A stretch of 64,000 nucleotides of DNA from Phycisphaerae bacterium (GTDB lineage Bacteria; Planctomycetota; Phycisphaerae; SM23-33). The position numbers were made by a program, and so were the translations under genes. The stretch lies in assembly GCA_009783465.1 (NCBI GenBank), contig WRDM01000011.1:2911-66910 (forward strand), given 5' to 3'. The notes under the pieces are model-generated. The model was given only the letters and a program-made list of their open reading frames with translations, made no database searches and was not told the DNA's origin. Positions 3,239-62,318 of this stretch are shown one piece after another (the stretch's first letter is position 1; each line of letters opens with the position of its first letter).

Positions 3239-3306
3239 AAAACGCATTCGCGTAGCACGAGTAGCACGTTCGGACGATGAATCCGCAAGGAAAAGAAAGA
3301 GTCATT

Positions 3307-5793: not shown

Positions 5794-5959
5794 GATGTTC
5801 CTGTCGCGTAGTGGTATTCCGCGGCGCGATGTTAAGATGGGCAAAATAAAAAGCGTCGTTAAAATTTAATGGATAAAATAAGGAAAATATTCTTGGATAA
5901 AATGGAAACACCCATGGCGTGATTTTCCATAACATGTTATATTTATATATGTTATAGTG

Positions 5960-10616: not shown

Positions 10617-10781
10617 ATCGAAATCCGAAATTCGAAGCCCGAAATCCGAAACAAACTCCAAAGCCCCAAACGACAAAACCCAAACGCTCCGCTATCCAAA
10701 ACATTTGGACCGCGGAGCGTTTGAAATTTTCTGCTTTGGGGCTTTGGAATTTGTTTCGAATGTCGAATTTAGGATTTCGTA
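10617..10781. repeat. Long hairpin repeat with 7-nt periodic arms (gaaatcc family), copy 2 of 3
   Basis: Left arm gaaatccgaaattcgaagcccgaaatccgaaacaaactccaaagccccaaacgacaaaacccaaacgctc pairs with right arm gagcgtttg...ctttggggctttggaatttgtttcgaatgtcgaatttaggatttcg. It sits between convergent genes, and the right arm overlaps the last codons of mnmG. Confidence 0.85.
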
Positions 10782-21481: not shown

Positions 21482-21614
21482 ATAGATGTTGTCTCGTTGT
21501 TGAACGGTCGTGACGCAGGACGCGAGCGTTGTTTTTTCGTTTGTTAATTTAGGCCAGGCGTTTCGTGGAGAAACGGATCGGACAACCAGCCGGGCCATTG
21601 AAGGAGAATGAACC

Positions 21615-27600: not shown

Positions 27601-30600
27601 CCACAGGCGGTAACCGCAACGAACTGCTGGTGCTCGCCAACGCCAAGTCGGCCGACATGGTGAACACGCTGCGCACCGTCGCCGCCAACGTGCCGCGCGG
27701 GAAAACGCCGGTCGTCGTCTCGGCCGACGAAGGCTCGAACGCGTTGATTTTTGCCGGCCCCGGCGGCGAATTGGACAAGTTGATCAAGATGGCGATGCAG
27801 TTGGATCAGGCGTCGTCCGCGGGCGCGGGCACGATGGGCGTGTACGTGATGGCGCTGGAAAACGGCCAGGCGGTCGACATGGCCACGAAGGTCCGCGACC
27901 TGTACAACCAGCAGGCCAACGCCGCCCGCGCGCAGCGGAAGTCGATTGATCCGCTGGCCGTGACGGCGGATGACCGCGCCAACGCGCTGATTCTGGCGAC
28001 CACGAAGGACATGTACGAGCAGGTCAACGGATGGGTGAGCCAGTTGGAAAAAATCACCCCCGCCAAGGGCACGCTGCGCGTGATCACCGTGCCCAACGCC
28101 GATCCGCTGGAGGTCGAACGGGCCATTCAGCAGTTGTACGGCGGGCAGGGCCCCGGCAGGCCGTCGCGAATTGGCGATCCGGACGAAGAGGAAGAAGAAC
28201 CGACGACCCAGCCGACCAGTCAGCCGGCGCAGGAAGACGATCCGCAGGCCCAGCCGCAGATTCAACCGCAGGTCGTCGCGCCGCCGCTGGCCGCCGAACC
28301 GGCAGCGCTGCCGGCTGGCCGAGGCGGGACGGTCTCCACCACCGTCTTCCCGCAGCAGCGGACTATTTTTGTCACCGCCGCCGACGAGGATTTCGAAGCC
28401 ATTCAAGCGCTCGTCAAGGCGATGGACGACGCGGCCGCCAAGAGCCGACAGGGCGTGCAGTTGTTCGTGCTCAAGCACGCGGACACGCAGCAGATGGCCC
28501 AGTCGCTCAACAACGTGTTCAATCGTCTTGCCCGGCGGCAGGAGGATCTCGTGATCGCCACGCCGATCCAGGGCACGCGGGCGATCGTGGTGGCGGCGAC
28601 GGAGGCGAAGATGAAGGAAGCCTCCGCCCTCATCGAGCAGATGGACAGCGAAGCCCTCAGCCCGAAGGTGGAGTTCCGCGTCTATCCGCTCAAGAACGCC
28701 AATCCCGCCCGGCTGCTGCCGACCGTGCAGGGCATGTTGTCGCAGCTTCAGCGGGCGCGGACGGGCGAGCAGATCACCGTCAGCGCCGACGAGCGCACGC
28801 GCAGCCTGATCGTGACGGCCAGCGCGAGCGTGTTCAACCAGATCGACAACATTATTGAGACGCTCGACCAGACGCCGCAGTATGAGAAGGTCGAGGTGCT
28901 GATCCTGCCGCTCAAGACGGCGGAAGCGTCGCGGCTGGCGGTCGTGCTGACGCAGATGCTCACGCCCGGCAGCGACGGCCAGGCGTCGCAGCAGGCCCGC
29001 GCGTTGCAGGAACAGATTCGCCTGCTCCGCATCCGCTCGACGGTGCAGGATCAGGTGCCGGAGCTGGATTTGTCTCAGCCGATCAAGATCACCGCCGACG
29101 GCGCGGCGGGGTCGAACTCGCTGGTCATCACGTCGACGGCGAATAATCTCAAGGCGATGGCTGCTGTCGTGGAAATGATGGACCGTCTGCCGGTGAGCGA
29201 GGGCGTGATGGTGCGCGTGGCGCATCTGGAGCACGCCGACGCGGCCACGGTGATGGCGGTGCTGCGGAGTATCTTCGATCAGGGTCAGCGGCTGACGAGT
29301 CGGGTTCCCGGCGGCCGGGCCGAGCCGACGACCGCCAGCGGCAAGGCGTTGACGAGTCCGCTGAACATCGCCGTCGACGCCCGCACGAACACGCTGATTT
29401 TAGCTGGCGTCGAGGAAAGCGTCGCGCTGGCGGAGATCGTGCTGCGGGATCTCGACCGCGAGAACGCCAAGTTCACCACGGAAGTCCGGCTGTTCCAGGT
29501 GAAGAACGTCTCGGCGGTTTCGTTGTCCAACATGGTCCGCTCGGTGTTCGCCGAAGGCGCCGCCGTCGGCGGCAGCGAAGGACTCAACACGCAGGTCACG
29601 CGGCTCAAGCTGGTTCTGGAGCAAGCGGTCGAGAAGCCCGAAGACGGCAAGGACGAACCGGGCGACGAACAGAACGAGGCCGCGCCCACGCCGCCTGCCA
29701 CGGAGCGTTCGACGGCGATTGCCAAGTCGCGTCCCGCGCTGACAGTGCAGGCCGACCCGACGAGTAACATTATTATTGTGGCTGCCCGGTCGGATATCAT
29801 GCCGCTGATCGCCGACGTGATTTCGACGATGGACCTCGCCGGCGCCGCCACCGGGCCGAACGATGTTCGCATTCTGCCGCTGACCCACGCCGACGCGTCG
29901 CGGTTGCAGCAGATGATCATGACGATTTACACCTCCGGCCCGGCCGCGGTGCAGATCCGCGCCGAGGACAGGCCGACCATTGTCATCGACACGCGCACCA
30001 ACGCGCTGGTCGTTTCCGCGACGGAGAAAACCGTCGCGGCGGTGGAGGCGTTGGTGGCCCGGCTGGACACCAAAAGCGACGTCGAGCAGCTCGACGTCCG
30101 GTTGTTGAAGATCGAGCACGTGGACGCCGCGGAAGTGGGCGGCACGGTGCAGCGGATCATGGACGCCCGCGTGCAGCGGCTGGTCTCGCAGGGCGTGCGC
30201 GACGCCGACGCCGCCCGCGTCACCATCGTCGCCTACGCGCGGAGCAACAGCCTCATCATCGGCGGGTCGGCCGAAGGGTACGAACTGATCAAGACGATCG
30301 TGTCGCAGCTCGACACGGAAGAACCGGCGCTGGCGGGACAGATTCAGCTCATCCCGCTGACCAACGCCAACGCGGCCACCATCGCGGGAAGTCTGTCGAA
30401 TCTGTTCAACCAGCGTTACCAGGCCGTGCGAAGTGCCGAACTGGCGCGGCAGCGGCCGATCATCATGAGCGACGTGCGGTCCAACAGTTTGATGGTTGTC
30501 GCCAATGCCGACGACAGCAAACTGCTGACGGGCCTGCTCGAAAAACTCGACATCAAGCTGACCGATGCCGCCGTCGGCATTCACGTGGTGCCGATGCAGA

Positions 30601-33560
30601 ACATGGACGCCGCCGTCGCCGCGCCCATGATTCAGAATGTGTTCAACGCCCGCCTGACGGCTGCCACGCCGCCGGGCCAGCCGATTCAGCCGCAGGACCG
30701 CGTCACGGTCCAAATCGAGCCGCTGTCGAACTCGCTGCTGGTCGTCTGCTCGAAGGAGAACCTCGAACTGCTCGGCGACCTGTTGGACAAGGTGGACGTC
30801 GAGCCGGCCGTTGCCGACGGCGTGGTGGAGATCATCGAACTGAAGAACGCCACGGCGGACAACGTGCGGGCGCTGCTGCAAACCCTCATCAGCCAGGGGC
30901 TGTACAAACCCGGCACGAGCGGGACCGTCAGTGCGGCGCAGGCGGCGAGAGAGAAGGTGACGATCGTCGCCGAGTCGCGGTTGAACCTGTTGCTGGTGTC
31001 GGCCAGCAAGGAGAACCTTGCGATTGTCAAGCAGTTGGTCACGACGTTGGACGACAACAAGTTGCAGCAGGGCGACATCCGCATCTTCACGATCAAGAAC
31101 GCCAACGTGACGCAGTTGACGCCGACGCTGGTGCAGTTCTTCAATCAGAAGCTCCAGGCCGAGCGGACGGTCAACCCGTCGGTCGCCACCTCGACGATGC
31201 CGCTGGTGGCCGTCCCCGACGTCCGCACCAACACGCTGCTGGTGGCGGGTGGGAAGGAAAACTTCGACTTCGTGGAGAAGATGCTCGAACAGCTCGACGG
31301 TCCCGGCGCCGCCGCCAATGAATTCCGGCGGTTCCAACTGGAGAACGCGACGGCGGCGACGCTTCAGCCGACGTTGCAGAGCCTGTTCACGCAGCGGCTT
31401 GCGACCGGAAAGAGCAAAGAGGCCGTCTTCATCTTCCTGGACGCGGTCAGCAACGCGATGTTGATCGGTGCCAGCCCGGAGGACATGGCGTTCGCCGCGG
31501 ACATCATCGCGCTGATGGACGTCAAATCCGAGGCTCCCGACGCGACGAAGATTTTCCCGCTGACGTACGCGAATTCGGCCTCGCTGGTTCCGGTGCTTCA
31601 GAGCCTCCTTCGCGCCGGAACGACGGTGGCAGCCGTCGCCGTCACCTCCGATGAGCGGACCAACTCCATCCTGGTGACAGCCGGCACGGCGGATCTCGAA
31701 CGCGTCGCGGATCTGATCGGTAAACTGGACATCGCCGAGACGCTCACGAACGTGGCGGAAATGCGTATATTCCAACTCATGTACGCCGACGTGACCGAAC
31801 TGGCGACCACGCTGCGCGAAGCGCTCAACAACCGCCCAGCCGCCACGCCGGGGTCCAGCGCCAACCGGGCGATCCTGCTCCAACTGGTGACGCGCTCGGC
31901 GGAGGGGCAGGACCTGATCATCAGCGCCCTCCAGCAGGGCGTGCAGTTGACGCCAGACCGTCGGACGAACATGCTGATCGTCACCGCGCCGAAAGAGAAC
32001 ATGCCGGTGCTGGAGACGATTATCAAGGCGCTGGACACGGTCAGCCCGACGCAGGTGGAAATCAAGATGTTCACGCTCAAGAACGCTGCCGCCCGACAGA
32101 TGGCGCAGATGCTCACGGAGCTGTTCCGGCTGGACAACACGAACAACCGCAACGTCCAGTTGATGATGCCGGGCCTGGTGGCGATGCCGGGCGGCGTGGC
32201 GGCCCCGGTGGCCGTGCCGGGCGTCGAGGGCGACGCGGCCGCTGGCACCGCCGGCGAACCGGTGCTCGCCGTGACGGTCGATCCGCGAACCAACAGCCTG
32301 CTGGTCGCCGGCACGAAGGCGTATCTGGAAATGGCCACGCAGGTCATCGAGGAACTCGACAACCAGACCGAGACCGAACGCAAGATGGAACTGTTCCGCA
32401 TGCGGAACAGCCAGGCGGCCGACATCGAGACGGCCCTGCGGAGTTTCCTCGACCGCGAGCGGCAGACGCTGACGTCGACGCTGGGCACCGATGCCGTCGG
32501 GGCGGCCGACCGGCTGCTGGAACGTGAAGTGATCGTCGTGGCCGAGCGGGCGACCAACACGCTGCTGGTGTCGGCCAGTCCGCCGTATTTCGATCGGATC
32601 GCCGAGATCATCCGCGAACTCGACAAGGCGCCGCCGCAGGTGCTCATCCAGGTGCTGCTGGCCGAAGTGACGCTCGACAACTCCATGGACCTGGGCATGG
32701 AGTGGACGCACACGACCACCGCCAACGGGCACGCGGTCAGAACGGGCACGGACTTCGGCCTGTCCGCCCAGGCGAACGGCTTCTCGCTGTCGGTGACGGG
32801 CGACAACCTCAACCTGTTCCTGCGGGCGCTGCAAAGCCAGGGCCGCGTCGAGGTGCTCAGCCGGCCTCAGATTCACGCCACCGACAACATGAACGCGGAG
32901 ATCAACGTCGGCCAGGAGGTGCCCTTCATCCGCGACACCCGCGTGGACGTCAACGGCGGCATCTACAACACGATCCAGTACGAGACGGTGGGCGTGATTC
33001 TGAACCTCACGCCGCGCATCAACCACGAAGGCCAGGTCAAGCTCGACGTCGCGCCGGAAGTCAGCTCGCTCTCGACCTCCAGCGTCCAGGTCGGCAACGG
33101 CGTGTACATGCCGATTATCAACACCCGCAAGGCCAAAACGACCGTCACCGTGCAGGACGGCCATTCGGTGATCCTCGGCGGGCTGATCACCGCCCACGAC
33201 GAAAAACGCGACGAGAAGGTGCCCGTCCTGGGCGACATCCCGCTGCTGGGCTGGTTCTTCAAACATCAGAAGACCGTCAAGCAGCGGACGGAACTGCTGA
33301 TCATCCTGACGCCGCACGTGATTCGGAACAACGATGACACCGACAAGATGACCGACGAGCAGATCGAAAAGATGAACCTGCTCCGGCAGATGCGTGCGGG
33401 CATGAGTCGGATTGGCGACCCGTCGCTGGTGCCGGCTACCATGCCCGCCAGCGGGCAGGCGCCGATGCTCCAGGAGACCCCGCGCACCGGCGGCAACACG
33501 CAGGAGGAACTGGACCAGCTCAACACGGCTCCGGTGCGGATCGACGCGCATGCGCGGTGA
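21615..33560 (+). CDS. Giant secretin (3,981 aa): signal peptide, N0-like domain, about 40 tandem secretin N-domain repeats, C-terminal secretin pore domain
   Basis: aaggag lies upstream of ATG 21615. The signal peptide is MRQSKIVFLTMAFLVIVGVASVVAQ. The C-terminus carries secretin-domain motifs (VLIQVLLAEVTLD, LQSQGRVEVLSRPQI, VGVILNLTPRI, PIINTRKAKTTV, VPVLGDIPLLGWFFK, ELLIILTPHVI). The repeat unit follows the pattern [VI]x[VI][FY]xLKNAxAxxL...V.AD.RTNSLIV......I..LI..LD. Confidence 0.9.
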   Translation: MRQSKIVFLTMAFLVIVGVASVVAQEAAEPAAQPAPAEQPAAAPAEQPAPAAPEAAPAPAPEVKRDYQFQYNGVPYAEVVRRFAQAAKKPILGDVPVEGHLTFFDSESYTYEEAFEMLNTLLAMRGASIIEQGRFIRCMPTPMLNAKIYTGTEKTENIKPTEIVTVLLPLKYLDAEVAAKTAIRMVSSYGSVAPMSRGRGVVITDHMGNIQRVKVLFDEMDRDSFSSQQVRSFALKQAQARNIVNVVNQLFMWKGDPTKMPDDWAFAASDDRSNTLVLIGVGPKLALAEDMVTQLDSGGPREGDMKVYDLKNAKAESLANSVRQALTTNRDAAGISVVGDPGSNRLIVAVPPNMIKQVDAMVEQLDVSATSVASGFRVFRLTKADANQMANVMQQLMHRARDPRTGVQPAAVMADGPTNSVIISGLAADIELATAVIQELDMGEDGLSRDVQVVPLKNGRGHETANMIRQLFTQQRQGQPGASSLRVESDPTGGSLIISASPGDWQLIQEILRKIEVNGPAASIVTRMVAVKNIRPGELAGSLHHVFNSRPRPVPVVFAPSDRTSTMLVSAPLEEQDAIADIIRSLDVGPDAPREDVTIVNLTSSDARQLAETIRQMIPHDMHGRIQVVGDWMSNSVVLRAPDSDRESMVKIIRDLDVPIQKEVSQVQTVQVQHVHASQLAGSLMQIYGRQQNQQRGQRQGGGSLVMVAAADLVIVPTGEKALIVKASPSEMEQVLAMIKQLDVPGGASTSGMRVIQLKSGEAYRVADVIRGMIPHELHGQMQVVADPGSNSVVIRGPESVRQAMEDVVATLDATARQGMRQTRLIKVEHVAASQAAETLRQLYVNRSGDHSQQVMVAAAPGDKQLIIDAPDSLVEAVAQMATSLDVAESVTAQSVRVYTLSSGSAPEIAQSLGRLYQQRDGGDRRGQPPPPRFEASATSNQVIVSASEEQFKVVDELLKQMQDVPAALASDTKTFKLQYAKARDLAPVLQNMLQGNTNVGGGQWQQQPQWQPPQEGGGENQWQPRPRYQPRSDSSAPFRVAALESNNTLIVQGTADKLALAEQLIQTFDVDVNDTEKATIQIIGLKNAKADSLAESINRTLADQAQQRGAGTRVTVTPEMNTNSLLVRGLPADIDNVLAMVQQLDVDGEARVEMKVYRLENSDVADIEKVMSKLLGDITRMGASNRRQGGGGESGYSVTADERTNSLIVFTTAANFKVIETLLADLDKGPEDITPRKQREIHFAWLENQKARDVVAKLEAMYRDRKPADRPYIEPDSFFNTITLIAEEADIKQMMEMIDKFDSQPVKRNLQVKVFPLLAMRADRMADAIERVYSQMTDAKITVTDRIPGRSMPRYPQDKPGDNRVPNGGANGHPVEQPNPSQPEPQSEPHHADPGGDVGVEILPSLLEMMSEPALADADDTGPAITISVDSESNSLVIAATREELQEIERFIQDLTTSTSTSEMDIRYYKVKSADVTAIAHTLDLLFNPQSAGRNPQAGGQAARTGRRGGNPGNPQPDPNQPPQDPNNPQPQPAPQPVPAPNVILVPYARTSMLIVRAKPAEFDMIEVLLDTLDRPSGVLTDMRIFTLKNVTANEVAANVRDLFQRASASVGDGGEAAPPANGNEQREEMIRQQLELQASGGGGGGNISVTANQQSNSVIVVASPENLRIVERLINELDQSAGGRTVVVRLYPVRAGNAEAVANSLRQAFGTGGNFANPGGRRGGVGAVAMADSAFSISANEESRVVIVSADPDKHELVQKVLDELNAAAEAAGASVVHVYRLDNAVAQGAAGALREAVSNNRSIRISADNSNNSIIINAPEAEHERLAALIADIDKPMTSVPDVRTIVLRNADPTATANNLTRIFSQQQQQAGPRRGNVIGQGLAIEVDIESKTLMVRSDEETFEKVRQLASHLDATSPRGRSKQHVFTLQYADAISIAPSMTQAFAPQPGVRLSPDDFVQIVAEANSNSLIVTANETNIEKVITLIAKIDTETTGGNRNELLVLANAKSADMVNTLRTVAANVPRGKTPVVVSADEGSNALIFAGPGGELDKLIKMAMQLDQASSAGAGTMGVYVMALENGQAVDMATKVRDLYNQQANAARAQRKSIDPLAVTADDRANALILATTKDMYEQVNGWVSQLEKITPAKGTLRVITVPNADPLEVERAIQQLYGGQGPGRPSRIGDPDEEEEEPTTQPTSQPAQEDDPQAQPQIQPQVVAPPLAAEPAALPAGRGGTVSTTVFPQQRTIFVTAADEDFEAIQALVKAMDDAAAKSRQGVQLFVLKHADTQQMAQSLNNVFNRLARRQEDLVIATPIQGTRAIVVAATEAKMKEASALIEQMDSEALSPKVEFRVYPLKNANPARLLPTVQGMLSQLQRARTGEQITVSADERTRSLIVTASASVFNQIDNIIETLDQTPQYEKVEVLILPLKTAEASRLAVVLTQMLTPGSDGQASQQARALQEQIRLLRIRSTVQDQVPELDLSQPIKITADGAAGSNSLVITSTANNLKAMAAVVEMMDRLPVSEGVMVRVAHLEHADAATVMAVLRSIFDQGQRLTSRVPGGRAEPTTASGKALTSPLNIAVDARTNTLILAGVEESVALAEIVLRDLDRENAKFTTEVRLFQVKNVSAVSLSNMVRSVFAEGAAVGGSEGLNTQVTRLKLVLEQAVEKPEDGKDEPGDEQNEAAPTPPATERSTAIAKSRPALTVQADPTSNIIIVAARSDIMPLIADVISTMDLAGAATGPNDVRILPLTHADASRLQQMIMTIYTSGPAAVQIRAEDRPTIVIDTRTNALVVSATEKTVAAVEALVARLDTKSDVEQLDVRLLKIEHVDAAEVGGTVQRIMDARVQRLVSQGVRDADAARVTIVAYARSNSLIIGGSAEGYELIKTIVSQLDTEEPALAGQIQLIPLTNANAATIAGSLSNLFNQRYQAVRSAELARQRPIIMSDVRSNSLMVVANADDSKLLTGLLEKLDIKLTDAAVGIHVVPMQNMDAAVAAPMIQNVFNARLTAATPPGQPIQPQDRVTVQIEPLSNSLLVVCSKENLELLGDLLDKVDVEPAVADGVVEIIELKNATADNVRALLQTLISQGLYKPGTSGTVSAAQAAREKVTIVAESRLNLLLVSASKENLAIVKQLVTTLDDNKLQQGDIRIFTIKNANVTQLTPTLVQFFNQKLQAERTVNPSVATSTMPLVAVPDVRTNTLLVAGGKENFDFVEKMLEQLDGPGAAANEFRRFQLENATAATLQPTLQSLFTQRLATGKSKEAVFIFLDAVSNAMLIGASPEDMAFAADIIALMDVKSEAPDATKIFPLTYANSASLVPVLQSLLRAGTTVAAVAVTSDERTNSILVTAGTADLERVADLIGKLDIAETLTNVAEMRIFQLMYADVTELATTLREALNNRPAATPGSSANRAILLQLVTRSAEGQDLIISALQQGVQLTPDRRTNMLIVTAPKENMPVLETIIKALDTVSPTQVEIKMFTLKNAAARQMAQMLTELFRLDNTNNRNVQLMMPGLVAMPGGVAAPVAVPGVEGDAAAGTAGEPVLAVTVDPRTNSLLVAGTKAYLEMATQVIEELDNQTETERKMELFRMRNSQAADIETALRSFLDRERQTLTSTLGTDAVGAADRLLEREVIVVAERATNTLLVSASPPYFDRIAEIIRELDKAPPQVLIQVLLAEVTLDNSMDLGMEWTHTTTANGHAVRTGTDFGLSAQANGFSLSVTGDNLNLFLRALQSQGRVEVLSRPQIHATDNMNAEINVGQEVPFIRDTRVDVNGGIYNTIQYETVGVILNLTPRINHEGQVKLDVAPEVSSLSTSSVQVGNGVYMPIINTRKAKTTVTVQDGHSVILGGLITAHDEKRDEKVPVLGDIPLLGWFFKHQKTVKQRTELLIILTPHVIRNNDDTDKMTDEQIEKMNLLRQMRAGMSRIGDPSLVPATMPASGQAPMLQETPRTGGNTQEELDQLNTAPVRIDAHAR
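22098..32630 (+). other. Array of about 40-41 divergent secretin N-domain (NolW-like / ring-building motif) repeats within the giant secretin
   Basis: I read 40 consecutive units ending ...NSLIV...LD (for example DDRSNTLVLIG, DPGSNRLIVAV, DERTNSLIVFT, DARTNTLILAG, DPRTNSLLVAG, ERATNTLLVSA), plus one N1-like unit at the start (RGRGVVITDHMGNIQRVKVLFDEMD). The mean spacing is about 86 aa. Confidence 0.8.
32631..33326 (+). other. Secretin (beta-barrel pore) domain of the giant secretin
   Basis: The region PPQVLIQVLLAEVTLDNSMDLGMEW through RTELLIILTPHVIR has the canonical motif order of GspD/PilQ secretin C-domains. Confidence 0.85.
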
Positions 33561-33584
33561 CGTGCGCTGCGATGCGACATGTGG

Positions 33585-33882
33585 GTGAAGATGGGCCGCT
33601 TGTTGCAGGGAATCAAAGCCACTAGCCACAAGCCACTAGCGACAAGGGCTTGCGAGGCGTGACGGTGAAATTGTTCCTCGCTGTGGCGAGAGAGGTCTCG
33701 ATGCTTCGCGGACGCGGAGATCGGCGGGAGCGTCCATGTTGGCCGATGATCGAGTCAGCGGAGCATCGGGACCACTCTCTCGAACGGGATGTTCATGTTT
33801 ACAGTGATGCACCGAAAACCGTTGTCGCTTGTCGCTTGTGGCTAAAACGATTCCCTCGAACCCGCGGTGCATTTTCACCGTC
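33585..33882. repeat. About 298-bp structured repeat (gccacta/gccacaa 7-nt arms plus conserved core), copy 1 of a direct pair
   Basis: It starts gtgaagatgggccgcttgttgcagggaatcaaagccactagccacaagccactagcgacaagggcttgcg and ends gcattttcaccgtc. The core gtggcgagagaggtctcgatgcttcgcgga...gaccactctctcgaacgggatgt is shared with 34458-34750. It begins 25 nt after the secretin stop. Confidence 0.85.
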
Positions 33883-33912
33883 GGGCACACGGAGATGACA
33901 GCGAGGTTACAT

Positions 33913-34434: not shown

Positions 34435-34457
34435 GGTTGGATGTTCGCGGCGTGCGG

Positions 34458-34750
34458 GTGAAGAGGAGACGCTTGTTCGAGGGAGTCAGAGCCACTAGCC
34501 ACCAGCCACTAGCGACAAGGGCTTGCGGCGCTTGGCTGTACATGTGCACCTCACGGTGGCGAGAGAGATCCCAATGCTTCGCGGACTCGATAATCGACAG
34601 GGGGGTTCGTGGTAGCCGATCTTCGAGTCCGCGAAGCCGCAAGACCACTCTCTCGAATGGGATGTACTCATTTACCGTCACGCACCGCAAGCCCTTGTGG
34701 CTAGTGGCTTGTGGCTTGCCTCCCTCGAATGTATGGTACGATTTCACCGT
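34458..34750. repeat. About 293-bp structured repeat, copy 2 of the direct pair
   Basis: It starts gtgaagaggagacgcttgttcgagggagtcagagccactagccaccagccactagcgacaagggcttgcg and ends cgatttcaccgt. It is collinear with 33585-33882 and begins 24 nt after the lipoprotein stop. Confidence 0.85.
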
Positions 34751-34768
34751 TGCGCAAAAGGAGAACCA

Positions 34769-38504: not shown

Positions 38505-38608
38505 CGTGATGCGGGCGTCTTGCCCGCGTCCGGATGTGGTATAGACGTGGCGTTTTTTATGGAACAGTCTCATGGATCGCACAACGCGGGCGAGACGCCC
38601 GCATCACG
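38505..38608. repeat. Palindromic element, intergenic copy (family also found inside mutS2 and the ABC permease)
   Basis: Arm cgtgatgcgggcgtcttgcccgcg (38505-38528) pairs with cgcgggcgagacgcccgcatcacg (38585-38608) with 1 mismatch. It ends 2 nt before the mutS2 stop codon (38611-38613). Confidence 0.85.
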
Positions 38609-38610
38609 TT

Positions 38611-41301
38611 TCACTCCCGTACCGGTTCCAGGTCGGTCAGGGGGATTTCCAGTTCGAAGGCGCCGCTTTGCACGACGGCGTGTTGTTTGTCCGGGTTGAT
38701 GCGGAGGAGCGTGGCGCGTTTGTGAAACGGGACGACGTACACCTGTTGGCCTGGCTGGACGGCGAGCAGTTTGTCGAGGTGTTCTTTGGATCGGCCTTGG
38801 GGGCTTCGGCGGTGCATCGGCTGTGGGGCGGCGGGCTCAGAGTCGCCGTCGCGCGGCGTCGATTCGCCGTGTCGGCTTCGATCGCCGTGTCGTGGCCCGT
38901 GTCGGCCTCGGGCGGGATCGGCCTCGCGCCCGGCCTTCGCGAACGGGCTTTCCTGCGGGAACAGTTCCTGCAACGTCACCTCCAACTCGCCGGCAATCGT
39001 CTGTACCTTCGCCTTACCTCGCGCGAAATCCACCGACGTGAGCGTGCCGTTGCCCGGCAGCTTTGTCAGCGTCACTTCGTCGCCGACCTTCATCTCGCCG
39101 ATCCGCGCCAGCCACGCGTCGAACTGCCGCGAACGCTCCTTCTGTTCGCGCAGGCTCCGCTCGAGTTCTTTCTGCGCGTGGGTTGCCTGCGCGGCGGCCT
39201 GCTCGCTGGCGGCCGCCTGCGCGTGCATCTGCTGACGCACCGCGTTGATCTGCCCCCGCACGGCTTCCTGGCCGAGGTCGGGCATCAGTTCGCGGAGGGG
39301 CACTTCGATTTGCAGCGGGTCGGCATTGACGACGGCGATCTGGCGGTGCAGCTCCAGCCGAACCAGCCTGCCCATGCGTCGCAGCGAGGGCACGAAGACG
39401 TCGTCGCCTTCTTTGAGTTCACCCAGGCCCGCCAGCCAGAGGTTGAATTCCTCCTGGAGTCGTCGCAGGTCGGCAAGTTTGACTTCGTACGAAACCTGCT
39501 GGGTTTGGGCGGCCAATTGGGCTTCCGCGGCGGCGGCGCGGGCCTGCTCGGCGTCCTGGCGGACGATGCTCGTCGCCTGAATCGCCCGGCGAAACTGCTT
39601 GCCCTGTTGGTTCAGGTATTGGCGGGATGCGCCGACGATGCGTCGGGGCAGGCCCAGGTGGGCGGCCACCGAGATGGCATGACTTTCGCCGGGCGTGCCG
39701 ATGAGCAGGTGGTAGGTCGGGCGGAGGGTTTCGGAGTTGAAGGCGACGCTGGCGTTGTCGACGCGTTCGTTGGCGTAGGCGTAGGCTTTGAGGACGCTCA
39801 GGTGCGTCGTGACGATGCACGCGCAGCCGACGCGGCGGATTTCGTCGAGAATCGCCTGCCCGATCGCGCCGCCCTCGTCGGGGTCGGTGCCGCTGCCGAG
39901 TTCGTCCAGCAGGACGAGACTGGCGGCGTCGGCTTTGTGAAGGATGTACCGCACCCGCTTGATGTGGGCGCCGAACGTGGAGAGCGACTGCTCCAGCGAC
40001 TGTTCGTCGCCGATGTCGATGAAGACGTCGCGGTAGGCGGGCATGATCGCGCCGCGCCGGACCGGAATGTGCATGCCGCTCTGGGCCATCACTACCAGCA
40101 GCGCCACCGTTTTCAGCGCGACGGTCTTTCCGCCGGTGTTCGAGCCGGTGATGATCAGCACGTCGAAATCCTGGCCAAGGCGGATGTCGATGGGGACGAC
40201 AGCCGGCGTAGCCGCGCAACGTGACGCGGGCATCTCGCCCGCGTTGTGTGTACCATCGCCCTGGCTGGTGGAAGGCGCCAAATTTTTTCCGTCATTGCCG
40301 GACGCGGGCAAGATGCCCTCGCCACGTTGCTCCGTCTGCTCGATCAGCAGCGGGTGCCTGGCCTGGTGAAACACCAGCGGGCCTCGCTCGGTGATTTCCG
40401 GGCAGGTGAAGTTGAACTGGTACGCGTACTGCGCCTTGGCCGTCAGGACGTCGATGTGGGCCAGGCTGTGGAGCGTCGTGCGGACGCGGTCGGCGACGGC
40501 GAAGATTCGCAGGGCGAGTTGGCTGAGGAGGCGTTGGATTTCTCGGCGTTCGTCCTCGGCCAGATCGCTGAGGCGGTTGTTGAGTTGCACGCAGGCTTCG
40601 GGTTCAACGAACACGGTCGCGCCGCTGTGGGACGCGCGGTGGACGACGCCGGGCAGTCGGCCTCGGTTTTCCGCCTTTACCGGCAGCACGTAGCGGTCGC
40701 CGTGGAGGGTGACGACGGCCTCCTGGAGCAGTTTGGCGACTTCGCTTTGCCGCACGTAGCTGTGGATGAGGCTGTGGATGGCCTGCGCCGTGTCGGCCAT
40801 GTGGCGGCGGACTTCGGCGAGTTTGTGGCTGGCGCGGTCGCTGACGATGCCGTCGGGGTCGATGACGGCGTGCACGGCGTCGATTTCGCTTTGGAATTCG
40901 CCGATCCCACCGGCCATCGCGTGCAGCAGCGGCAGCGACTCGGGCAGTGAGAGCAGATAGCGGCGGACGTTCATCGCGCCTTCGAGCGTGCCGGCGATGA
41001 CGAGAAAATCTTCCGCGCTGGCGCCCGCGCCCGGCGTGGCCCGTTCCAGGGCGGCGGTGATGTCCACCACGCCGCCGAACGGCGGCAAGCCCACGTCGCG
41101 CAAGGCAGCCACCATCTGGCTGACCTGTTCCAGCCACTCGCGAATCACGGCGGGGTTTCGGCTGGGCCCGATACGCCGTGCCAATTCGCGTCCCAGCCCG
41201 CACCGACAATACCGCGACAAAATCGCCCGGACGGCATCGAACTCAATTTTGTTCAGCGTAAACGAATCCACATTGGCCTCGCAAACAAACCTGTCGCTCA
41301 T
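38611..41301 (-). CDS. mutS2: MutS2-family ATPase (no Smr domain detected; triplicated C-terminal module)
   Basis: The MutS domain V has Walker A ITGSNTGGKTVALKT and Walker B LVLLDELGSGTDPDEGGA, with ARHPLL upstream. The C-terminus lacks an Smr-like LDLHG motif and instead has three roughly 45-aa related units. Confidence 0.8.
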   Translation of the reverse strand: MSDRFVCEANVDSFTLNKIEFDAVRAILSRYCRCGLGRELARRIGPSRNPAVIREWLEQVSQMVAALRDVGLPPFGGVVDITAALERATPGAGASAEDFLVIAGTLEGAMNVRRYLLSLPESLPLLHAMAGGIGEFQSEIDAVHAVIDPDGIVSDRASHKLAEVRRHMADTAQAIHSLIHSYVRQSEVAKLLQEAVVTLHGDRYVLPVKAENRGRLPGVVHRASHSGATVFVEPEACVQLNNRLSDLAEDERREIQRLLSQLALRIFAVADRVRTTLHSLAHIDVLTAKAQYAYQFNFTCPEITERGPLVFHQARHPLLIEQTEQRGEGILPASGNDGKNLAPSTSQGDGTHNAGEMPASRCAATPAVVPIDIRLGQDFDVLIITGSNTGGKTVALKTVALLVVMAQSGMHIPVRRGAIMPAYRDVFIDIGDEQSLEQSLSTFGAHIKRVRYILHKADAASLVLLDELGSGTDPDEGGAIGQAILDEIRRVGCACIVTTHLSVLKAYAYANERVDNASVAFNSETLRPTYHLLIGTPGESHAISVAAHLGLPRRIVGASRQYLNQQGKQFRRAIQATSIVRQDAEQARAAAAEAQLAAQTQQVSYEVKLADLRRLQEEFNLWLAGLGELKEGDDVFVPSLRRMGRLVRLELHRQIAVVNADPLQIEVPLRELMPDLGQEAVRGQINAVRQQMHAQAAASEQAAAQATHAQKELERSLREQKERSRQFDAWLARIGEMKVGDEVTLTKLPGNGTLTSVDFARGKAKVQTIAGELEVTLQELFPQESPFAKAGREADPARGRHGPRHGDRSRHGESTPRDGDSEPAAPQPMHRRSPQGRSKEHLDKLLAVQPGQQVYVVPFHKRATLLRINPDKQHAVVQSGAFELEIPLTDLEPVRE
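40216..40330. repeat. Palindromic element inserted in frame inside mutS2
   Basis: The sequence runs gcaacgtgacgcgggcatctcgcccgcgttgtg ... ccggacgcgggcaagatgccctcgccacgttgc. It is homologous to 46003-46136 (same orientation) and 38505-38608 (inverted). It is translated as ILPASGNDGKNLAPSTSQGDGTHNAGEMPASRCAA. Confidence 0.85.
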
Positions 41302-44280: not shown

Positions 44281-44537
44281 TTTTTACCACAGAGGCACAG
44301 AGGAGAAGAGCCACAAGCCACAAGCCACAAGCCACAAGGTATGGCTCGTCTGATGTAAACAAGACCATACTGATGAAGTGACAAAATGTCTTTGGCGTTT
44401 TCGTTATTCATGCCGTAACCATCAAAATTGCATTCATTCCTCTGCTTTCGCCGTCGTCGTCCCTTACCTCGTGGCTCGTGGCTAGGCTCTGTCTCAAAAC
44501 TAGTGGCTTTTTTCTTTCTGTGCCTCTGTGGTAAAAA
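44281..44537. repeat. Nested hairpin repeat (outer arms ttaccacagaggcacagag; inner 7-nt gccacaa arms; conserved core), copy 1
   Basis: Outer arms 44281-44302 and 44518-44537 pair. The inner arm gccacaagccacaagccacaagccacaagg (44310-44339) pairs with ccttacctcgtggctcgtggctagg. The core ggtatggc...gttttcgtt.ttca.gc...cgtcgtcg.cccttacct is shared with 47158-47337. Confidence 0.85.
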
Positions 44538-44547: not shown

Positions 44548-47148
44548 TCACGGCAGTTTCCACACCTGGACCCGATCGTTTCCGCCGTCCACCACGTAGG
44601 CCATGTTGTCGTCGTCGATCGCGACGGCCCAGGGGTAACTGAGTTGTCCCAGTTCGCGTCCGGCTGAACCCAGTGAAGCGATTGCCTGGCCGTCGGGCGT
44701 GAAAATCTGTACGCGGTTGTTGCCCTGTTCGACGACGACCAGCCGGCCGTCGCGCGTCAACGCCAGGCCGTACGGATATCGCAACTGCCCAGGCCCGCTG
44801 CCCGGCGAGCCGATGTAGCCCTGCAATTCACAACGGAGATTGTACACCGCGACGCGGTGATTGCACGCGTCCGTCACGTACAATCGGTCGCGGGCGGCGT
44901 CGACGGCCATCGACTGCGGCCTCGAGAACTGCCCCGCCTCCGGGCCGAACGATCCGAACGCGCCGAGGAATTTTCCTTCCGGCGTGAAGAGGTTGATGCG
45001 GTCGTTGGCGCCGTACTCGCTGACGAGCACGCGGCCGTCGGGGAGGAACGCGATGTCGGTGGGGAAGATGAATTGGCCGTCGCCCTCGCCGAAACTGCCC
45101 CACTGGCGGACGAGTTCGCCGTCACGGGAGAAGACCATGACACGGTGGCAGTGCGTGTCGGCCACGTAGATGTTTCCGTCGGGTCCGACGCTGACGCCGC
45201 AGGGTTTGCCGGCGACGATGTCGGGCATGGCGATGTCGCGCACGAAACCGCCGTCGGGGCTGAGCAGTTGGACGCGTCCGGTTTTGTCGACGACGACGAG
45301 CGTGCCGTCGGCGAAGCGGTCGATCGCGCGCGGGTAGAGGAGCTCGCCGTTGCCCGAGCCGCGTCGGCCGATCTTGCCGCGCACGTCGGGCGGGCTGTCG
45401 TGCGGACGCGAGCAGGCCGGCAGCGACACGCCCGACAGAGCGACGATCAGCAGCAGCGTCATCAGCGAGCGGCGGCGGCGAGCCAGCCGCAGCAGCAGCC
45501 ACAGGCCGATCGCGGCGGCGAGGTAGAAGCCGAATAATAGCAGGCATGCGGCGACGACTTCCTGGTCCCGCAAGGCGTGCATCTGGTTGAGGAGGTAGAG
45601 GCTGAGGCTGAAGGCGCCCGGCGGCGAGACGATCTGGCTGCCGGTGATTTCGGTCAGGCCGAGCATGAGGACGACGACGGCGGCCCCCGCGAGCGTCGGC
45701 CAGGTCGCGGGGAGATGGACGTGCCGCCAGGCCTGCCAGGGCGACGCGCCGTCGACGGCGGCGGCTTCGGCGAGCGAGCGGCTTCGCGCGTCGCGGACGG
45801 CCCAGAAGACGATCAGCGCCAGGCCGGCGAATCGCACGCCCTGGAAGAGGCTCACCAGCAGCACGCTGTCGCGCAGCGGCAACAGCCACTCGTACCGCGC
45901 GATCCACTGCGACATCGCCACCGCGACCAACCCGCCGGGAATGATGGCCACGACCAGCAGGGAGACGGCGATGAGGGCGGTGATAATGCGGCGCGGGCGG
46001 CTGCAACGTGACGCGGGCGTCTCGCCCGCGTTGTGCGTTCCATTGATTTGGTTGTTGGAATACGTCGAACCGCCTTTGCCGCTCCGCGTGGGCAAGATGC
46101 CCGCGAGACGCATGGGCGAGACGCCCTCGCCACGTGAAACGCCCGTGTCCCAAGCGATCCTTGCCAGCAGCAGCGCCACGCCGGCGCCGAGGGCGGAGAC
46201 GGCCAGCGATTGGACGTATTTATCCGCCTGGAGCGTGACGAACTGCGCGAGATAATGCGGCGACATCGTGCCGGCCAGCAACGCCAGAGGCCCCGCCAGC
46301 GTGAACAGTAGCAGGGCGGTCACGAACGTCCAGGCCCATCGTCTCGGCCGGCCTGTAAATGATTTGGCACCGCCGCCGGTGTGATCGGCCCAGCCCTTCG
46401 CCGATCGCGCCAGCGCGACGGCCAACAGCAGCGACATCGCCGCCAGCGGCACGCAGCCGGCCACCGCCGGACCGACGCGAAGCGACTGCTGCATCGCCAA
46501 CGCCAACTCCGTGCCGATCGTCGCCTGACCGGCCAAATGCAGCGACGCGAAATCGGCTAAACACAGCGCAAAACACAGCCCCGCCGCCAGCGCGGCCGGG
46601 CGGGTCATCAGCGGAGCGGCCACGTATCGCAATCGGGCGAGCGGGCGGGCATCCAGGGCGGCGGCGTCGTGCACCTCGGCGGGAATGTTTCGCCACCCCT
46701 GCGCCAACAGCAGCGCCGCCAACGGCCAATACCACAGCACCAGTGTGAACGAGGAGGAGATCCAGGCCGCCCACTCCGCCAGCGTGCGGTCGGCGGCGAC
46801 GTACTGCCCCAGCGCCGCCGTCGGCGACAGGCAGATCGCCCACGAATAATACAACACGTACTGCGGCAGCAGCACGCTCGCCAATGCCAGCACGGTCAGC
46901 CCGCCCGCCCACCGACGCGATGCCGTCGCCATCAGCCATGCCGGCACGAGCCCCAACGCCACCGCCATCGCCGCCACCATCGCCGCCAACCCCACCGACC
47001 GCGCCGCCACCGGTGACCACCAGAGCGCCAACCCCTCCGCCAGATCCGCCAGCGAAACCTGCGACACCAGCCCCGCCAACGGGACAACGACGAGGCAAGC
47101 CCAGATCGCGACGCCGAGCAGGAGCAGGATGGGTCGTAGAATGGTCAT
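44548..47148 (-). CDS. ABC transporter permease (two-domain FbpB-type) fused in frame to an NHL-repeat beta-propeller protein
   Basis: ATG at 47148 gives MTILRPILLLLGVAIWACLVV. Multiple TM segments occur in two permease halves. After LLRLARRRRSL comes an internal Met with a lipoprotein-like signal MTLLLIVALSGVSLPAC, then six NHL-type blades (YPRAI, PCGVSV, FPTDIAF, RPQSMAV, YPYGLAL, YPWAVAI). Confidence 0.8.
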   Translation of the reverse strand: MTILRPILLLLGVAIWACLVVVPLAGLVSQVSLADLAEGLALWWSPVAARSVGLAAMVAAMAVALGLVPAWLMATASRRWAGGLTVLALASVLLPQYVLYYSWAICLSPTAALGQYVAADRTLAEWAAWISSSFTLVLWYWPLAALLLAQGWRNIPAEVHDAAALDARPLARLRYVAAPLMTRPAALAAGLCFALCLADFASLHLAGQATIGTELALAMQQSLRVGPAVAGCVPLAAMSLLLAVALARSAKGWADHTGGGAKSFTGRPRRWAWTFVTALLLFTLAGPLALLAGTMSPHYLAQFVTLQADKYVQSLAVSALGAGVALLLARIAWDTGVSRGEGVSPMRLAGILPTRSGKGGSTYSNNQINGTHNAGETPASRCSRPRRIITALIAVSLLVVAIIPGGLVAVAMSQWIARYEWLLPLRDSVLLVSLFQGVRFAGLALIVFWAVRDARSRSLAEAAAVDGASPWQAWRHVHLPATWPTLAGAAVVVLMLGLTEITGSQIVSPPGAFSLSLYLLNQMHALRDQEVVAACLLLFGFYLAAAIGLWLLLRLARRRRSLMTLLLIVALSGVSLPACSRPHDSPPDVRGKIGRRGSGNGELLYPRAIDRFADGTLVVVDKTGRVQLLSPDGGFVRDIAMPDIVAGKPCGVSVGPDGNIYVADTHCHRVMVFSRDGELVRQWGSFGEGDGQFIFPTDIAFLPDGRVLVSEYGANDRINLFTPEGKFLGAFGSFGPEAGQFSRPQSMAVDAARDRLYVTDACNHRVAVYNLRCELQGYIGSPGSGPGQLRYPYGLALTRDGRLVVVEQGNNRVQIFTPDGQAIASLGSAGRELGQLSYPWAVAIDDDNMAYVVDGGNDRVQVWKLP
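46003..46136. repeat. Palindromic element inserted in frame inside the ABC permease gene
   Basis: The sequence runs gcaacgtgacgcgggcgtctcgcccgcgttgtg ... gggcaagatgcccgcgagacgcatgggcgagacgccctcgccacgtg. It is translated as RGEGVSPMRLAGILPTRSGKGGSTYSNNQINGTHNAGETPASRC, in the same frame as the mutS2 copy. Confidence 0.85.
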
Positions 47149-47157
47149 ACGTGAAAA

Positions 47158-47337
47158 GCCACTAGCCACTAGCCACCAGGTATGGCCGAACCTGTTGTGA
47201 ATAAGAACACACTGGCGGTGCGGCAACGTATCGTCAGTGTTTTCGTTGTTCACGCATACTCGTCAGACTCGCATCAACTCTTTTGCCTTCACCATCGTCG
47301 CCCCTTACCTTGTGGCTAGTGGCTTGTGGCTAGTGGC
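47158..47337. repeat. Hairpin repeat with 7-nt gccacta arms and conserved core, copy 2
   Basis: gccactagccactagccaccagg pairs with ccttaccttgtggctagtggcttgtggctagtggc. The core is collinear with 44310-44490. It lies between the permease start and the binding-protein stop. Confidence 0.85.
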
Positions 47338-47345
47338 TCGCATTC

Positions 47346-49860: not shown

Positions 49861-49869
49861 CGAAGAAGA

Positions 49870-50145
49870 CTGTAGGCTGTAGGCGCGGTGCTGGCTTATG
49901 GTGGTCCCGCTACGTAAAAACGTCTTGAAATCCGAAACAAACTCCAAAGACTCAAACGACAAAATTCCAAACGCTCTCGCTATCCATGCGTCAAAGCTCG
50001 CGGAAAGCGAGAGCGTTTGGGATTTTTCTTTTGGGCTTTGGAGTTTGTTTCGGATTTCGAGTTTCGTATTTCGGATTTGAAAACGCTCCCGCATGGCTGG
50101 ACCACCATAAGCCGGCACCGCGCCTACAGCCTACAGCCTACAGCC
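49870..50145. repeat. Composite nested hairpin: outer cctacag-family arms enclosing a gaaatcc-family element (copy 3), between convergent serpin and bioB
   Basis: Outer arm ctgtaggctgtaggcgcggtgctggcttatggtggtcc (49870-49908) pairs with ggaccaccataagccggcaccgcgcctacagcctacagcctacagcc (50099-50145). The inner element 49927-50079 is homologous to 10617-10781. The bioB stop (50138-50140) lies inside the right outer arm. Confidence 0.9.
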
Positions 50146-52056: not shown

Positions 52057-52101
52057 TATACTTTCCGTCGGGCGACATGCAATTGGCTTTCGGAAGACAG
52101 C

Positions 52102-52226
52102 GACAGGTGACAAGCGACAAGTGACCAGAGCAGGAATGTCTTGTTTTGTTCCACGCTCTCGCGCAGTGTGGACGTTTTGAAAGACAAGACTTTCCTGCTC
52201 TGGTCACTTGTCGCTTGTCACTTGTC
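52102..52226. repeat. Hairpin repeat with 7-nt gacaagt arms; inverted homolog of 5665-5793
   Basis: gacaggtgacaagcgacaagtgaccagagcagg (52102-52134) pairs with cctgctctggtcacttgtcgcttgtcacttgtc (52194-52226). It ends 1 nt before the acetyltransferase stop codon. Confidence 0.85.
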
Positions 52227-54756: not shown

Positions 54757-55275
54757 ATGTACCGAATGCTGAGTCTGGGCGTGATGGTGGCGTTGCTGGG
54801 GTCGCTGATGGGGTGTGCGAGCAGCGGGGAGCCCCAGGCGCGGAGTCGCTGGTCCGGCGGCAGCACGCCTCCGGGGTATCAGTGGGGCGAGGGGTTGACG
54901 TCGCTGTGGGATTCGTCGACGTACAACACGCAGGTGCTGCAGGCCTGCCACGACCTCTACGACGGCAAGATGGCGATTACGCGCGTCAATGCCGCCAAGC
55001 GTCTTGGCGAACTCAAGCCCACGAGCAATTTCGCGGTGGAGCGGCTGGAGCGTGGCATGAAGGATCGCGTGATGGAGGTTCGTATCGCGTCGGCGTTGGC
55101 GTTGCAGGAGATCGGCACGGACGGCGCGATGCGGCATCTGAAGGAGGCGCAGGAAAAAGGCCAGGTGCCGTGCGATCTGCCCACATCGGCCGGCCAGGGC
55201 AGCGCGTTCCAGGGCGATAACACGCCCTCCGACAGCACGGAGACGACGGTGGAAGTGAAGGCGAGGAAGGACTGA
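54757..55275 (+). CDS. Lipoprotein with HEAT-like repeats
   Basis: The signal peptide and lipobox are MYRMLSLGVMVALLGSLMGC. HEAT/PBS-lyase-like repeats are present (RVNAAKRLGELK, VRIASALALQEIGTDGAMRHL). Confidence 0.65.
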   Translation: MYRMLSLGVMVALLGSLMGCASSGEPQARSRWSGGSTPPGYQWGEGLTSLWDSSTYNTQVLQACHDLYDGKMAITRVNAAKRLGELKPTSNFAVERLERGMKDRVMEVRIASALALQEIGTDGAMRHLKEAQEKGQVPCDLPTSAGQGSAFQGDNTPSDSTETTVEVKARKD

Positions 55276-55282
55276 GAGGAAG

Positions 55283-55393
55283 GCTGTTAGACTGTTAGGC
55301 TGTTAGACTGTTCGGGAGAGGCTTATGAAGGATTTGGCCTGATTTTTCATGAGCCTGCGCCTAACAGCCTAACAGCCTAATAGTCTAACAGTC
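55283..55393. repeat. Hairpin repeat with 8-nt periodic arms (cctaacag family), copy 2 of 2
   Basis: gctgttagactgttaggctgttagactgtt pairs with cctaacagcctaacagcctaatagtctaacagtc. The core ggcttatg...tcatgagcctgcgcc matches 7284-7392. It lies between convergent genes. Confidence 0.85.
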
Positions 55394-55401
55394 TCTGTCT
55401 C

Positions 55402-62078: not shown

Positions 62079-62156
62079 ACGATTATCGGCCAGATTATAG
62101 TCGCGGGAATTGTTTTTGTTAATCCGCAAATTTGCGGATGTCGTTTTCGTGTGCAC

Positions 62157-62302
62157 GACAGTGAAATCGTACCGTCAATTCCAGGGAATGTTTTCGTTGA
62201 TTCGTTAACTGGTTGACTGGTGAGGTTTCTCGAATTAACGAGTCAACCAGTTAACGAGTCAACGAAAACATTCCCTGGAATTGACTGTACGATTTCACCG
62301 TC
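62157..62302. repeat. 146-bp long hairpin (gttaacg family core, about 44-nt outer arms) between fusA and the upstream oxidoreductase gene
   Basis: gacagtgaaatcgtaccgtcaattccagggaatgttttcgtt pairs with aacgaaaacattccctggaattgactgtacgatttcaccgtc with 2 mismatches. The inner arms are gttaactggttgac/gtcaaccagttaac. The end motif gatttcaccgt also terminates the repeats at 33882 and 34750. Confidence 0.9.
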
Positions 62303-62318
62303 GTGCTGGTCACTGGAC

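Follow-up and report, generated by a model that had tools for sequence, protein, structure and literature searches.

A probable REP-doublet element lying in frame within mutS2 of a Phycisphaerae bacterium, and its relatives inside other genes

How does a palindromic DNA element come to lie inside a conserved protein-coding gene that still appears intact? The question is raised by a 64-kb stretch of a Phycisphaerae bacterium genome (contig WRDM01000011.1 of assembly GCA_009783465.1, positions 2,911 to 66,910; hereafter the window), in which a palindrome of 115 bp lies within the open reading frame (ORF) of mutS2. A first-pass annotation of the window, made from the sequence alone, had placed this insertion in the ATPase core, reported two further copies, and proposed a mobile or recombination-spread palindromic element that tolerates translation in one frame. 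The element, its sequence as then quoted, the intact ORF around it and the two further copies all held up in our analysis, which points to a likely identity for it: a non-autonomous doublet of repetitive extragenic palindromes (REPs), similar to the REP doublets forming hairpins (REPINs) of other bacteria, probably moved as single-stranded DNA by a REP-associated tyrosine transposase (RAYT) and translated as a near-neutral, disordered loop of MutS2.

Three copies of the element are visible for the source genome in this contig stretch (copies A, B and C; Table 1). Copy B, the one in mutS2, has the layout GCAACGTGAC-GCGGGCATCTCGCCCGC-GTTGTG...GGAC-GCGGGCAAGATGCCCTC-GCCACGTTGC, and the terminal inverted repeats of the element read GCAACGTGRC...GYCACGTTGC. 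When the three copies are aligned, their ends are invariant and their centre is variable. The hairpin motif has seven matches in the window, compared with 0.07 expected from shuffled sequences, and six of the seven fall within copies A, B and C. Each copy folds end to end (DNA z scores of -4.1 to -7.8); the two DNA strands of copy B reach -33 and -38.5 kcal/mol (z -4.3 and -6.4), and its mRNA-sense RNA forms a single long hairpin of -66.7 kcal/mol (z -7.9). Rfam, run over the entire window with gathering thresholds, returned no hit, so that no known structured RNA or intron accounts for the element. Copy A occupies the classical REP position between convergent genes, and the other two copies are intragenic; that copy C also lies in frame, within a permease gene, is a point absent from the first-pass annotation.

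Relatives of the element were sought in two larger collections. A 21-nt pattern consisting of the bare hairpin and GTTG recovered 47 loci in many phyla from a genome collection, all of them REP-doublet-like and the source genome not among them; these loci came from Verrucomicrobiota, Acidobacteriota, Haliangiales and other Planctomycetota. Since the bare hairpin is so widespread, it is not family-specific by itself, and a longer, 23-nt pattern was therefore used to scan metagenomes. This returned at least 93 stretches, almost all from the JGI sample Ga0123353, with at least 113 further copies of the element that share a conserved core and are ascribed to a sister organism of the window's, in line with the spread that the first-pass annotation had supposed.

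The family consensus is (A)CGTGRC GCGGGCGTCTCGCCCGC GTTGTGCGTTCCATTGGCCTGGTCGCTGGAAGACGTCAAACCGTCTTCGCCAGAC (GCGGGCAGGATGCCCGC GGGACGC)x0-3 GCGGGCGAGACGCCCGC GCCACG. Two inverted GC-rich hairpins enclose a ~50-bp spacer, itself conserved in the family, and the 3' end consists of one to four hairpin modules of 24 nt each. Within the 17-nt hairpin module proper, G(C/A)GGGC-N5-GCCC(G/T)C, compensatory changes maintain the stems: at stem position 2-16, 218 modules have C-G and 73 have A-T, intermediates being few, and at position 7-11, 203 have G-C and 59 have A-T. The foot CGTGRC is likewise constrained, with its G, T and G conserved at 97-98% and R divided between G (46 copies) and A (39), hence GTGG or GTGA. 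Some loci carry the element in head-to-tail tandem arrays (L056, L105, L111 and L115). The GCGGGCGTCTCGCCCGC hairpin of the genome-collection loci (L001-L047), found for example in Verrucomicrobiota SPRUCE_520 (L003, L008, L016 and L021) and in Haliangiales (L010, L023 and L041), has a GTAGTGGC foot in some cases and is nested in a second hairpin type (GGCAGGCGTCCCGCCTGCC) in others.

The family resides to a large extent within genes. Using a codon model trained on the fetched loci, under which mutS2 scored 0.237 in sense and 0.077 in antisense, we assigned frames to the 90 copies with at least 80 flanking codons on either side. In total, 52 of these assessable copies lie in frame within genes. 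Of these, 39 are read in A0, as in the window, 11 in S2, which belongs to the opposite orientation, and two in A2. The other 38 are intergenic, lie at gene ends or in arrays, or scored low. A typical A0 peptide is RGAGVSPARPAGILPASGEDGLTSSSDQANGTHNAGETPAPR, and a typical S2 peptide is RGAGVSPALCVPLAWSLEDVKPSSPDAGRMPAGRAGETPAPR. The tolerance for translation proposed in the first-pass annotation is thus borne out by copy number and frame, except that two frames are used, one per orientation, rather than one. The length from GCGGGC to CACG equals 2 modulo 3 in 92 of 101 delimited copies, a class that takes in 50 of the 52 intragenic copies and 31 of the 38 others. Among 99 copies, S1 is stop-free in 76 and A2 in 64, yet these frames are used 0 and 2 times. 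The combined Arg and Lys content of the encoded peptide is 24-29% in S0, S1, A1 and A2, against 8% in A0 and 11% in S2.

The host ORFs are diverse and appear functional. Pfam domains were matched in 17 of the 20 that were scanned, including one with an embedded RAYT (see below), and among the hosts are valyl-tRNA synthetase (ValRS), KdpD, an ArnT-like PMT_2 protein, FeoB, a rhamnosidase, an ABC exporter, LpxB, Lnt, an aldolase-SDR fusion, a TOTE primase-helicase, PurL, CCA/poly(A) polymerase, a sigma-54 activator and a MacB-like permease. In all 15 cases with usable domain coordinates, the insert falls outside the Pfam-matched stretches.

The insertion in mutS2 follows the same pattern. The element-encoded residues (Table 1) lie between ARHPLL (residues 314-319) and VVPIDI (368-373), the motifs between which the first-pass annotation had placed an addition of about 40 aa. 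It had also stated that few residues separate them in other MutS2 proteins, and this agrees with the gap of four residues in B. subtilis, which runs from the end of ARHPLL at residue 312 to the first residue of the VVxxDI strand, 317, and of two residues in T. maritima. Among 120 homologues, however, the stretch from LLIxQ to VVPID is typically 16 aa (AWRQEKAGVPPEKRHP), compared with 45 aa in the window, so that the position stood and the size did not: the net gain is ~29 aa, and the native loop appears to have been replaced rather than extended. The product is 100% identical to NCBI FWE88_04055, from a Phycisphaerae metagenome-assembled genome (MAG), and Foldseek with its AlphaFold model gave the MutS2 proteins of B. 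subtilis, T. maritima and T. thermophilus as best matches. In this model, whose mean predicted local distance difference test score (pLDDT) is 80.9, residues 335-363 are coil with a pLDDT below 50, flanked by a helix (317-329) and a strand (371-375). The structure modelling that the first-pass annotation had looked to thus indicates that the insert is most likely a disordered surface loop. Predicted peptides spanning the junctions are GEGILPASGNDGK and NLAPSTSQGDGTHNAGEMPASR.

Comparison with orthologues gives this site a history. Those at 66% identity or less have no insert and keep the 16-aa loop, as the first-pass annotation would have it. The orthologue P0004 (78% identical; locus L049), which also comes from sample Ga0123353, carries a similarly oriented member of the same element family at this very place, with its 3' hairpin intact and its 5' hairpin degenerate. 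Two others (L048), P0002 (80%) and P0003 (78%), have a different palindromic element at the same site, belonging to the GACAAGCGACAAG family and encoding SDKRQATSDKSRK; copies of that family are intergenic in the window at 5667-5801 and 52092-52226.

A second host gene in the window, encoding a double ABC permease fused to an NHL beta-propeller (Table 1), offers a parallel case. Copy C has the same orientation and reading frame there as the copy in mutS2, and the element peptide reads RGEGVSPMRLAGILPTRSG...NGTHNAGETPASRC in the permease and RGEGILPASG...GTHNAGEMPASRC in MutS2. In permease/NHL orthologues at ~42% identity, the corresponding loop is short. The orthologue P0123 (72%) carries the same element family, with five tandem AEGVPPAR modules, and P0122 (71%) has at this site a different family, AAATCCGAAAT, which is also intergenic in the window. 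For both host genes of the window, then, the loop is occupied by the same family in one close lineage and by a different palindromic family in another. At locus L068, a GCGGGC-type left end is joined directly to a AAATCCGAAAT element. The pattern suggests that elements already resident at a loop may be replaced, or inserted into, by others.

A candidate mobiliser is found among the relatives. In a ValRS ORF of 1289 aa from sample Ga0123353 (locus L069), a 762-nt cassette lies without any stop codon in the order TGTGAC-GCGGGCGTCTCGCCCGC...RAYT...four hairpin modules...GCGGGCGGGACGCCCGC-GTCACG. The RAYT that it encodes scores 84.5 bits against NCBIfam NF047646, 'REP-associated tyrosine transposase' (cut-off 80), and also matches Pfam Y1_Tnp. 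A second RAYT with the same ends, 56% identical to the first, is embedded in frame in a DinG-like helicase gene of a Tepidisphaeraceae MAG (locus L009). Both cassettes have R(G/D)AGVSPA at their left end and RGRDAR(A/V)T at their right end. The RAYT-bearing element is an open in-frame cassette with no stop codon and no nearby ATG, in which an in-frame GTG (GVG-type) could serve as a start. In the protein collection, the 120 best homologues of the RAYT all stand alone, with lengths of 197-347 aa, so that embedding is not a general trait of the RAYT family.

How, then, might the copy in mutS2 have arisen and persisted? Mobilisation would most likely have proceeded as single-stranded DNA through a RAYT, a tyrosine transposase of the Y1/HUH type. 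An ancestor shared by the window organism and its sister organism would have gained a copy in the MutS2 loop that leads from the lever region to the pre-Walker A strand, and the native 16-aa loop would have been lost when the copy was acquired. Tolerance of the copy may be explained by element lengths that fall in one class modulo 3, which preserves the downstream frame, and by a reading frame that is stop-free and encodes a hydrophilic peptide rich in Gly, Ala, Pro, Ser and Thr. Given this frame, the lack of stops and the benign peptide, the insert would be translated as a disordered surface loop, and it would persist since it is nearly neutral to MutS2. Selection, rather than targeting, would leave copies in inter-domain loops and in the two frames that avoid Arg-rich peptides.

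Several observations weigh against this account. REPs are extragenic by definition, and more than half of the assessable copies here (52/90) lie in frame within genes. A tblastn search found no RAYT in the 64-kb window. The excess of A0 over S2 copies (39:11) might stem from strand-specific insertion instead of selection acting on the peptide, and translation of the insert is a prediction from the intact ORF. No clean empty site was found among homologous loci of the fetched set, in which a single trio, at the gene for CCA/poly(A) polymerase, was informative: L135 and L085 are filled, and L078 has at ~5026-5047 a run of 22 nt (AACATGGCGTCCCCCGTAACAC) resembling joined element termini, which could be either an excision footprint or an end-like target. 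Finally, REP hairpins typically have GTAG (or CGTC) at the foot, and the 5' tag here is CGTGRC and not the canonical GTAG. GTGG has been described as a degenerate GTAG variant in the GTAG-20 REPs of Opitutus terrae (PMC3733652).

Could the insert instead have been retained for a function of its own? Either its peptide (...GTHNAGE(T/M)PA(S/P)R...) or the ~28-bp mRNA stem might have been co-opted for a selected role in MutS2 and the further hosts, for instance as an RNase III site, a translational pause or an interaction loop. The insert has been kept across ~22% amino-acid divergence of MutS2 with its 3' hairpin nearly intact in both lineages, and the mRNA hairpin noted above is very stable. 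Non-Watson-Crick pairs in the stems are also unevenly distributed: across L050-L142, A-C pairs on the 'S' strand number 51 and G-T pairs seven, so that the stems pair better on the complementary strand, the one carried by most host mRNAs. This asymmetry fits a function on one single strand, which could be single-stranded DNA serving a Y1 transposase or, in the A orientation, RNA. However, dozens of proteins with unrelated functions contain the same peptide, the MutS2 copy differs in its spacer both from the family consensus and from the L049 copy with its broken 5' hairpin, sister lineages carry an unrelated element at the same site, and the loop is modelled as disordered. We therefore consider co-option improbable, though the most credible of the alternatives.

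A classical MITE (miniature inverted-repeat transposable element), that is an internally deleted derivative of an insertion sequence (IS) with a DDE transposase, moving by cut-and-paste and leaving target-site duplications, would share with the REP doublet its terminal inverted repeats, its length of ~100-150 bp and its lack of coding capacity. The ends argue otherwise. Conservation falls to background level outside CGTG...CACG, and beyond these conserved termini 79 of 100 copies show no direct repeat, although a 2-bp CG or 4-bp ACGT duplication inside the ends would escape this count. A 2-bp CG target duplication would fit the small elements, in which CGTG..CACG spans 3n+2, but not the 762-nt RAYT element, which spans 3n. 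Furthermore, the ends are modular stem-loops with compensatory changes, the tandem number of 3' hairpin modules is variable, and the sole transposase found between identical termini is the Y1 RAYT, with no DDE parent found. A MITE is thus very unlikely. Palindromic targets were also considered as a general property of the insertions and rejected, as only 13 of 100 copies have at least three contiguous complementary flanking bases, with ~4 expected. Four copies (L075, L106, L119 and L140) have 7-8 nt of perfect inverted complement beyond the termini, such as ggcctggCGTG...CACGccaggcc, and look as if they had inserted into a pre-existing palindrome.

No more credible is a decaying or non-functional mutS2 in which any insertion would be tolerated. 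No Smr nuclease domain was matched by Pfam in the window MutS2 at E <= 0.001, the C-terminus consisting of two MSSS SH3 domains with long coiled coils between them. Yet this MutS_V and MSSS architecture is listed for all 120 homologues (from Phycisphaerae or Planctomycetota where the source is named), the ORF is intact, and its product of 896 aa scores 656 bits against the TIGR01069 equivalog model (cut-off 400), with Walker A and the other invariant ATPase columns preserved. Between the window and L049, mutS2 is 77.6% identical overall and 56.5% at third codon positions, which have thus diverged far more than first and second positions, indicating purifying selection on MutS2 since the insertion; moreover, in the sister organism the element is present in essential genes such as those for ValRS, LpxB and Lnt. 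Removal of the insert before the mature protein, by RNA excision, translational bypass or protein splicing, is the least plausible of all, for although a perfect long mRNA stem juxtaposes both junctions, Rfam has no match anywhere in the window, intein and intron features are absent, and the strict constraints on frame and length (one length class, low-Arg frames only) are predicted by translation and not needed for removal.

As a kind, the element fits best among REP-doublet (REPIN-like)/RAYT elements, with the behaviour of a Rickettsia palindromic element (RPE). REPIN-RAYT systems are reportedly also treated by Nunvar (2010) and Ton-Hoang (2012). As in REPIN-RAYT systems known from Pseudomonas and E. 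coli (Bertels and Rainey 2011, PMC3116915), two inverted REPs and a spacer form one long hairpin, copies number in the tens to hundreds, target duplications are lacking, and a Y1/HUH RAYT is flanked by the same REPs, here in the relatives. Classical REPINs are almost exclusively extragenic and their RAYTs free-standing, whereas most copies here are intragenic and both RAYTs are embedded in frame. The IS200/IS605 elements IS608 and ISDra2 (PMC6006769) likewise combine a Y1 HUH transposase with subterminal hairpins on one strand and no target duplication, and the strand asymmetry of wobble pairs would fit such a single-strand mechanism. Unlike their asymmetric left and right ends, those of the window element are multi-copy REP modules, and it has no transposase of its own. 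Quentin et al. (2018, PMC6006769) set 'unexpectedly long' Y1 proteins aside, taking them for fusions or annotation errors.

The first-pass annotation had called in-frame palindromes the hallmark of Rickettsia and otherwise rare. The former part stands, in that RPE-1 to RPE-10 represent the classical case of palindromic elements in frame (Ogata et al. 2000, as relayed in PMC10969869 and PMC3733652); the latter does not, intragenic REPs having been catalogued in 2013 in Opitutus terrae, Thauera, Xanthomonas and further species, with DNA-repair genes as hosts of many (Di Nocera et al., PMC3733652). Similar to RPEs as these accounts present them, the element is a palindrome of ~100-150 bp found in frame in many unrelated, apparently functional genes and encoding a fold-compatible peptide. 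The differences from RPEs, which belong to an AT-rich obligate intracellular alphaproteobacterium, are its GC-rich Phycisphaerae host, its REP hairpin modules and the RAYT with the same ends, RPE-1 having no known transposase partner as far as these accounts go. The likeness is one of behaviour; kinship in sequence would not be expected, and we do not claim membership of the RPEs.

Closer still are the 'REP-decorated proteins' of Di Nocera et al. (PMC3733652), in which GC-rich stem-loops and REP dimers lie inside ORFs and are translated as short peptides, many of them in genes for DNA repair and tRNA synthetases, and with a RAYT as the proposed mobiliser. The species with the largest number of these intragenic REPs is O. 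terrae, which belongs to the same PVC (Planctomycetes-Verrucomicrobia-Chlamydiae) superphylum and in which the same kind of hairpin, GGGCG-NNN-CGCCC, underlies the peptides GTGVPPV and HGRHARAT. The published cases are mostly single hairpins or dimers encoding 7-30 aa, whereas ours is a 100-150-bp doublet with a conserved spacer encoding ~35-50 aa; most of their REPs are intergenic, whereas at least 58% of the copies sampled here are in frame in genes, two frames are used, and the foot is CGTGRC rather than GTAG. A text search for 'mutS' did not find mutS2 in their host list (PMC3733652). The kind is thus already known from intragenic REPs and RPEs, and what is unusual is how many copies reside in frame, together with the filter on frames, the apparent recurrent replacement of one element by another within a loop, and RAYT cassettes that are themselves in frame. 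In the literature searched, we found no account of this family, of a mostly in-frame REPIN population or of RAYTs embedded in housekeeping genes.

In-frame palindromic DNA has so far been regarded mainly as a Rickettsia curiosity, together with scattered intragenic REPs. Here it appears in a free-living or gut-associated, GC-rich lineage, as a REP/RAYT family with most sampled copies inside genes and with essential hosts that include valS, lpxB, lnt, purL and mutS2. The system opens the study of selfish DNA as a source of new protein loops and linkers, in which the retained copies appear to be filtered by their length modulo 3, by the frame that is read, by whether the peptide is rich in Arg and by a position between domains. 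Such inserts lengthen loops and mimic 'lineage-specific insertions', and repetitive peptides (...HNAGETPAPR...) are seeded over MAG proteomes, which matters for annotation and homology searches. The embedded cassettes further raise the question of whether RAYTs can be expressed from within host proteins. It is possible, although we are doubtful, that the whole REP/RAYT system of this Phycisphaerae lineage is adapted to life inside protein-coding genes, with its one length class modulo 3, two mirror-image stop-free frames, in-frame RAYT cassettes and turnover of elements at the same loops; the transposase would then be made as an internal domain of a housekeeping protein, or by internal initiation within one.

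Table 1. Positions of the element copies, their host genes and other features discussed (window coordinates, unless a locus is named)
Feature	Position	Strand	Remarks
Copy A, extragenic	38505..38608	'S' orientation -	3 nt beyond the mutS2 stop codon
Copy B, 115-bp element (probable REP doublet)	40216..40330	'S' orientation +	in frame A0 in mutS2 (gene on -)
Left REP hairpin of copy B, GCGGGCATCTCGCCCGC	40226..40242	+	foot CGTGAC immediately before
Right REP hairpin of copy B, GCGGGCAAGATGCCCTC	40304..40320	+	one stem mismatch; GCCACG immediately after
Copy C, 132-134 bp	46003..46136	+	two 3' hairpin modules; in frame A0 in the ABC-permease/NHL gene; encodes ...SRGEGVSPMRLAGILPTRSGKGGSTYSNNQINGTHNAGETPASRC
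mutS2, host gene	38611..41301	-	896 aa; MutS_III, MutS_V, two MSSS SH3 domains; element = residues ~325-362
Double ABC permease fused to NHL beta-propeller	44548..47253	-	NCBI protein 866 aa; hosts copy C
ValRS ORF with RAYT	L069:4158-8024	+	cassette 4842-5603, between YPL and ATTRPET
DinG-like helicase with RAYT in frame	L009:6336-8000	-	between TSATL motif and Helicase_C_2 domain
Other palindromic families, window (i)	3061-3256, 5627-5801, 7290-7387, 10621-10803, 33574-33886, 34447-34755		
Other palindromic families, window (ii)	44302-44357, 47308-47345, 49867-50139, 52092-52226, 55274-55401, 62153-62306		

At least four other palindromic repeat families, with sequences such as AAATCCGAAAT..., GCCACTAGCCACAAG..., GACAAGCGACAAGTGAC... 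and AGGCTGTTAGACTGTTAGG..., occupy many intergenic gaps of the window (Table 1), and none of them is intragenic there. A further repeat of the window is of a different nature: in the ORF at 21612-33557 on the forward strand (3982 aa), a 36-nt motif encoding ...(A/T)DERTNSLIV... recurs in at least 16 diverged copies, resembling a very long array of secretin-N-like repeats.

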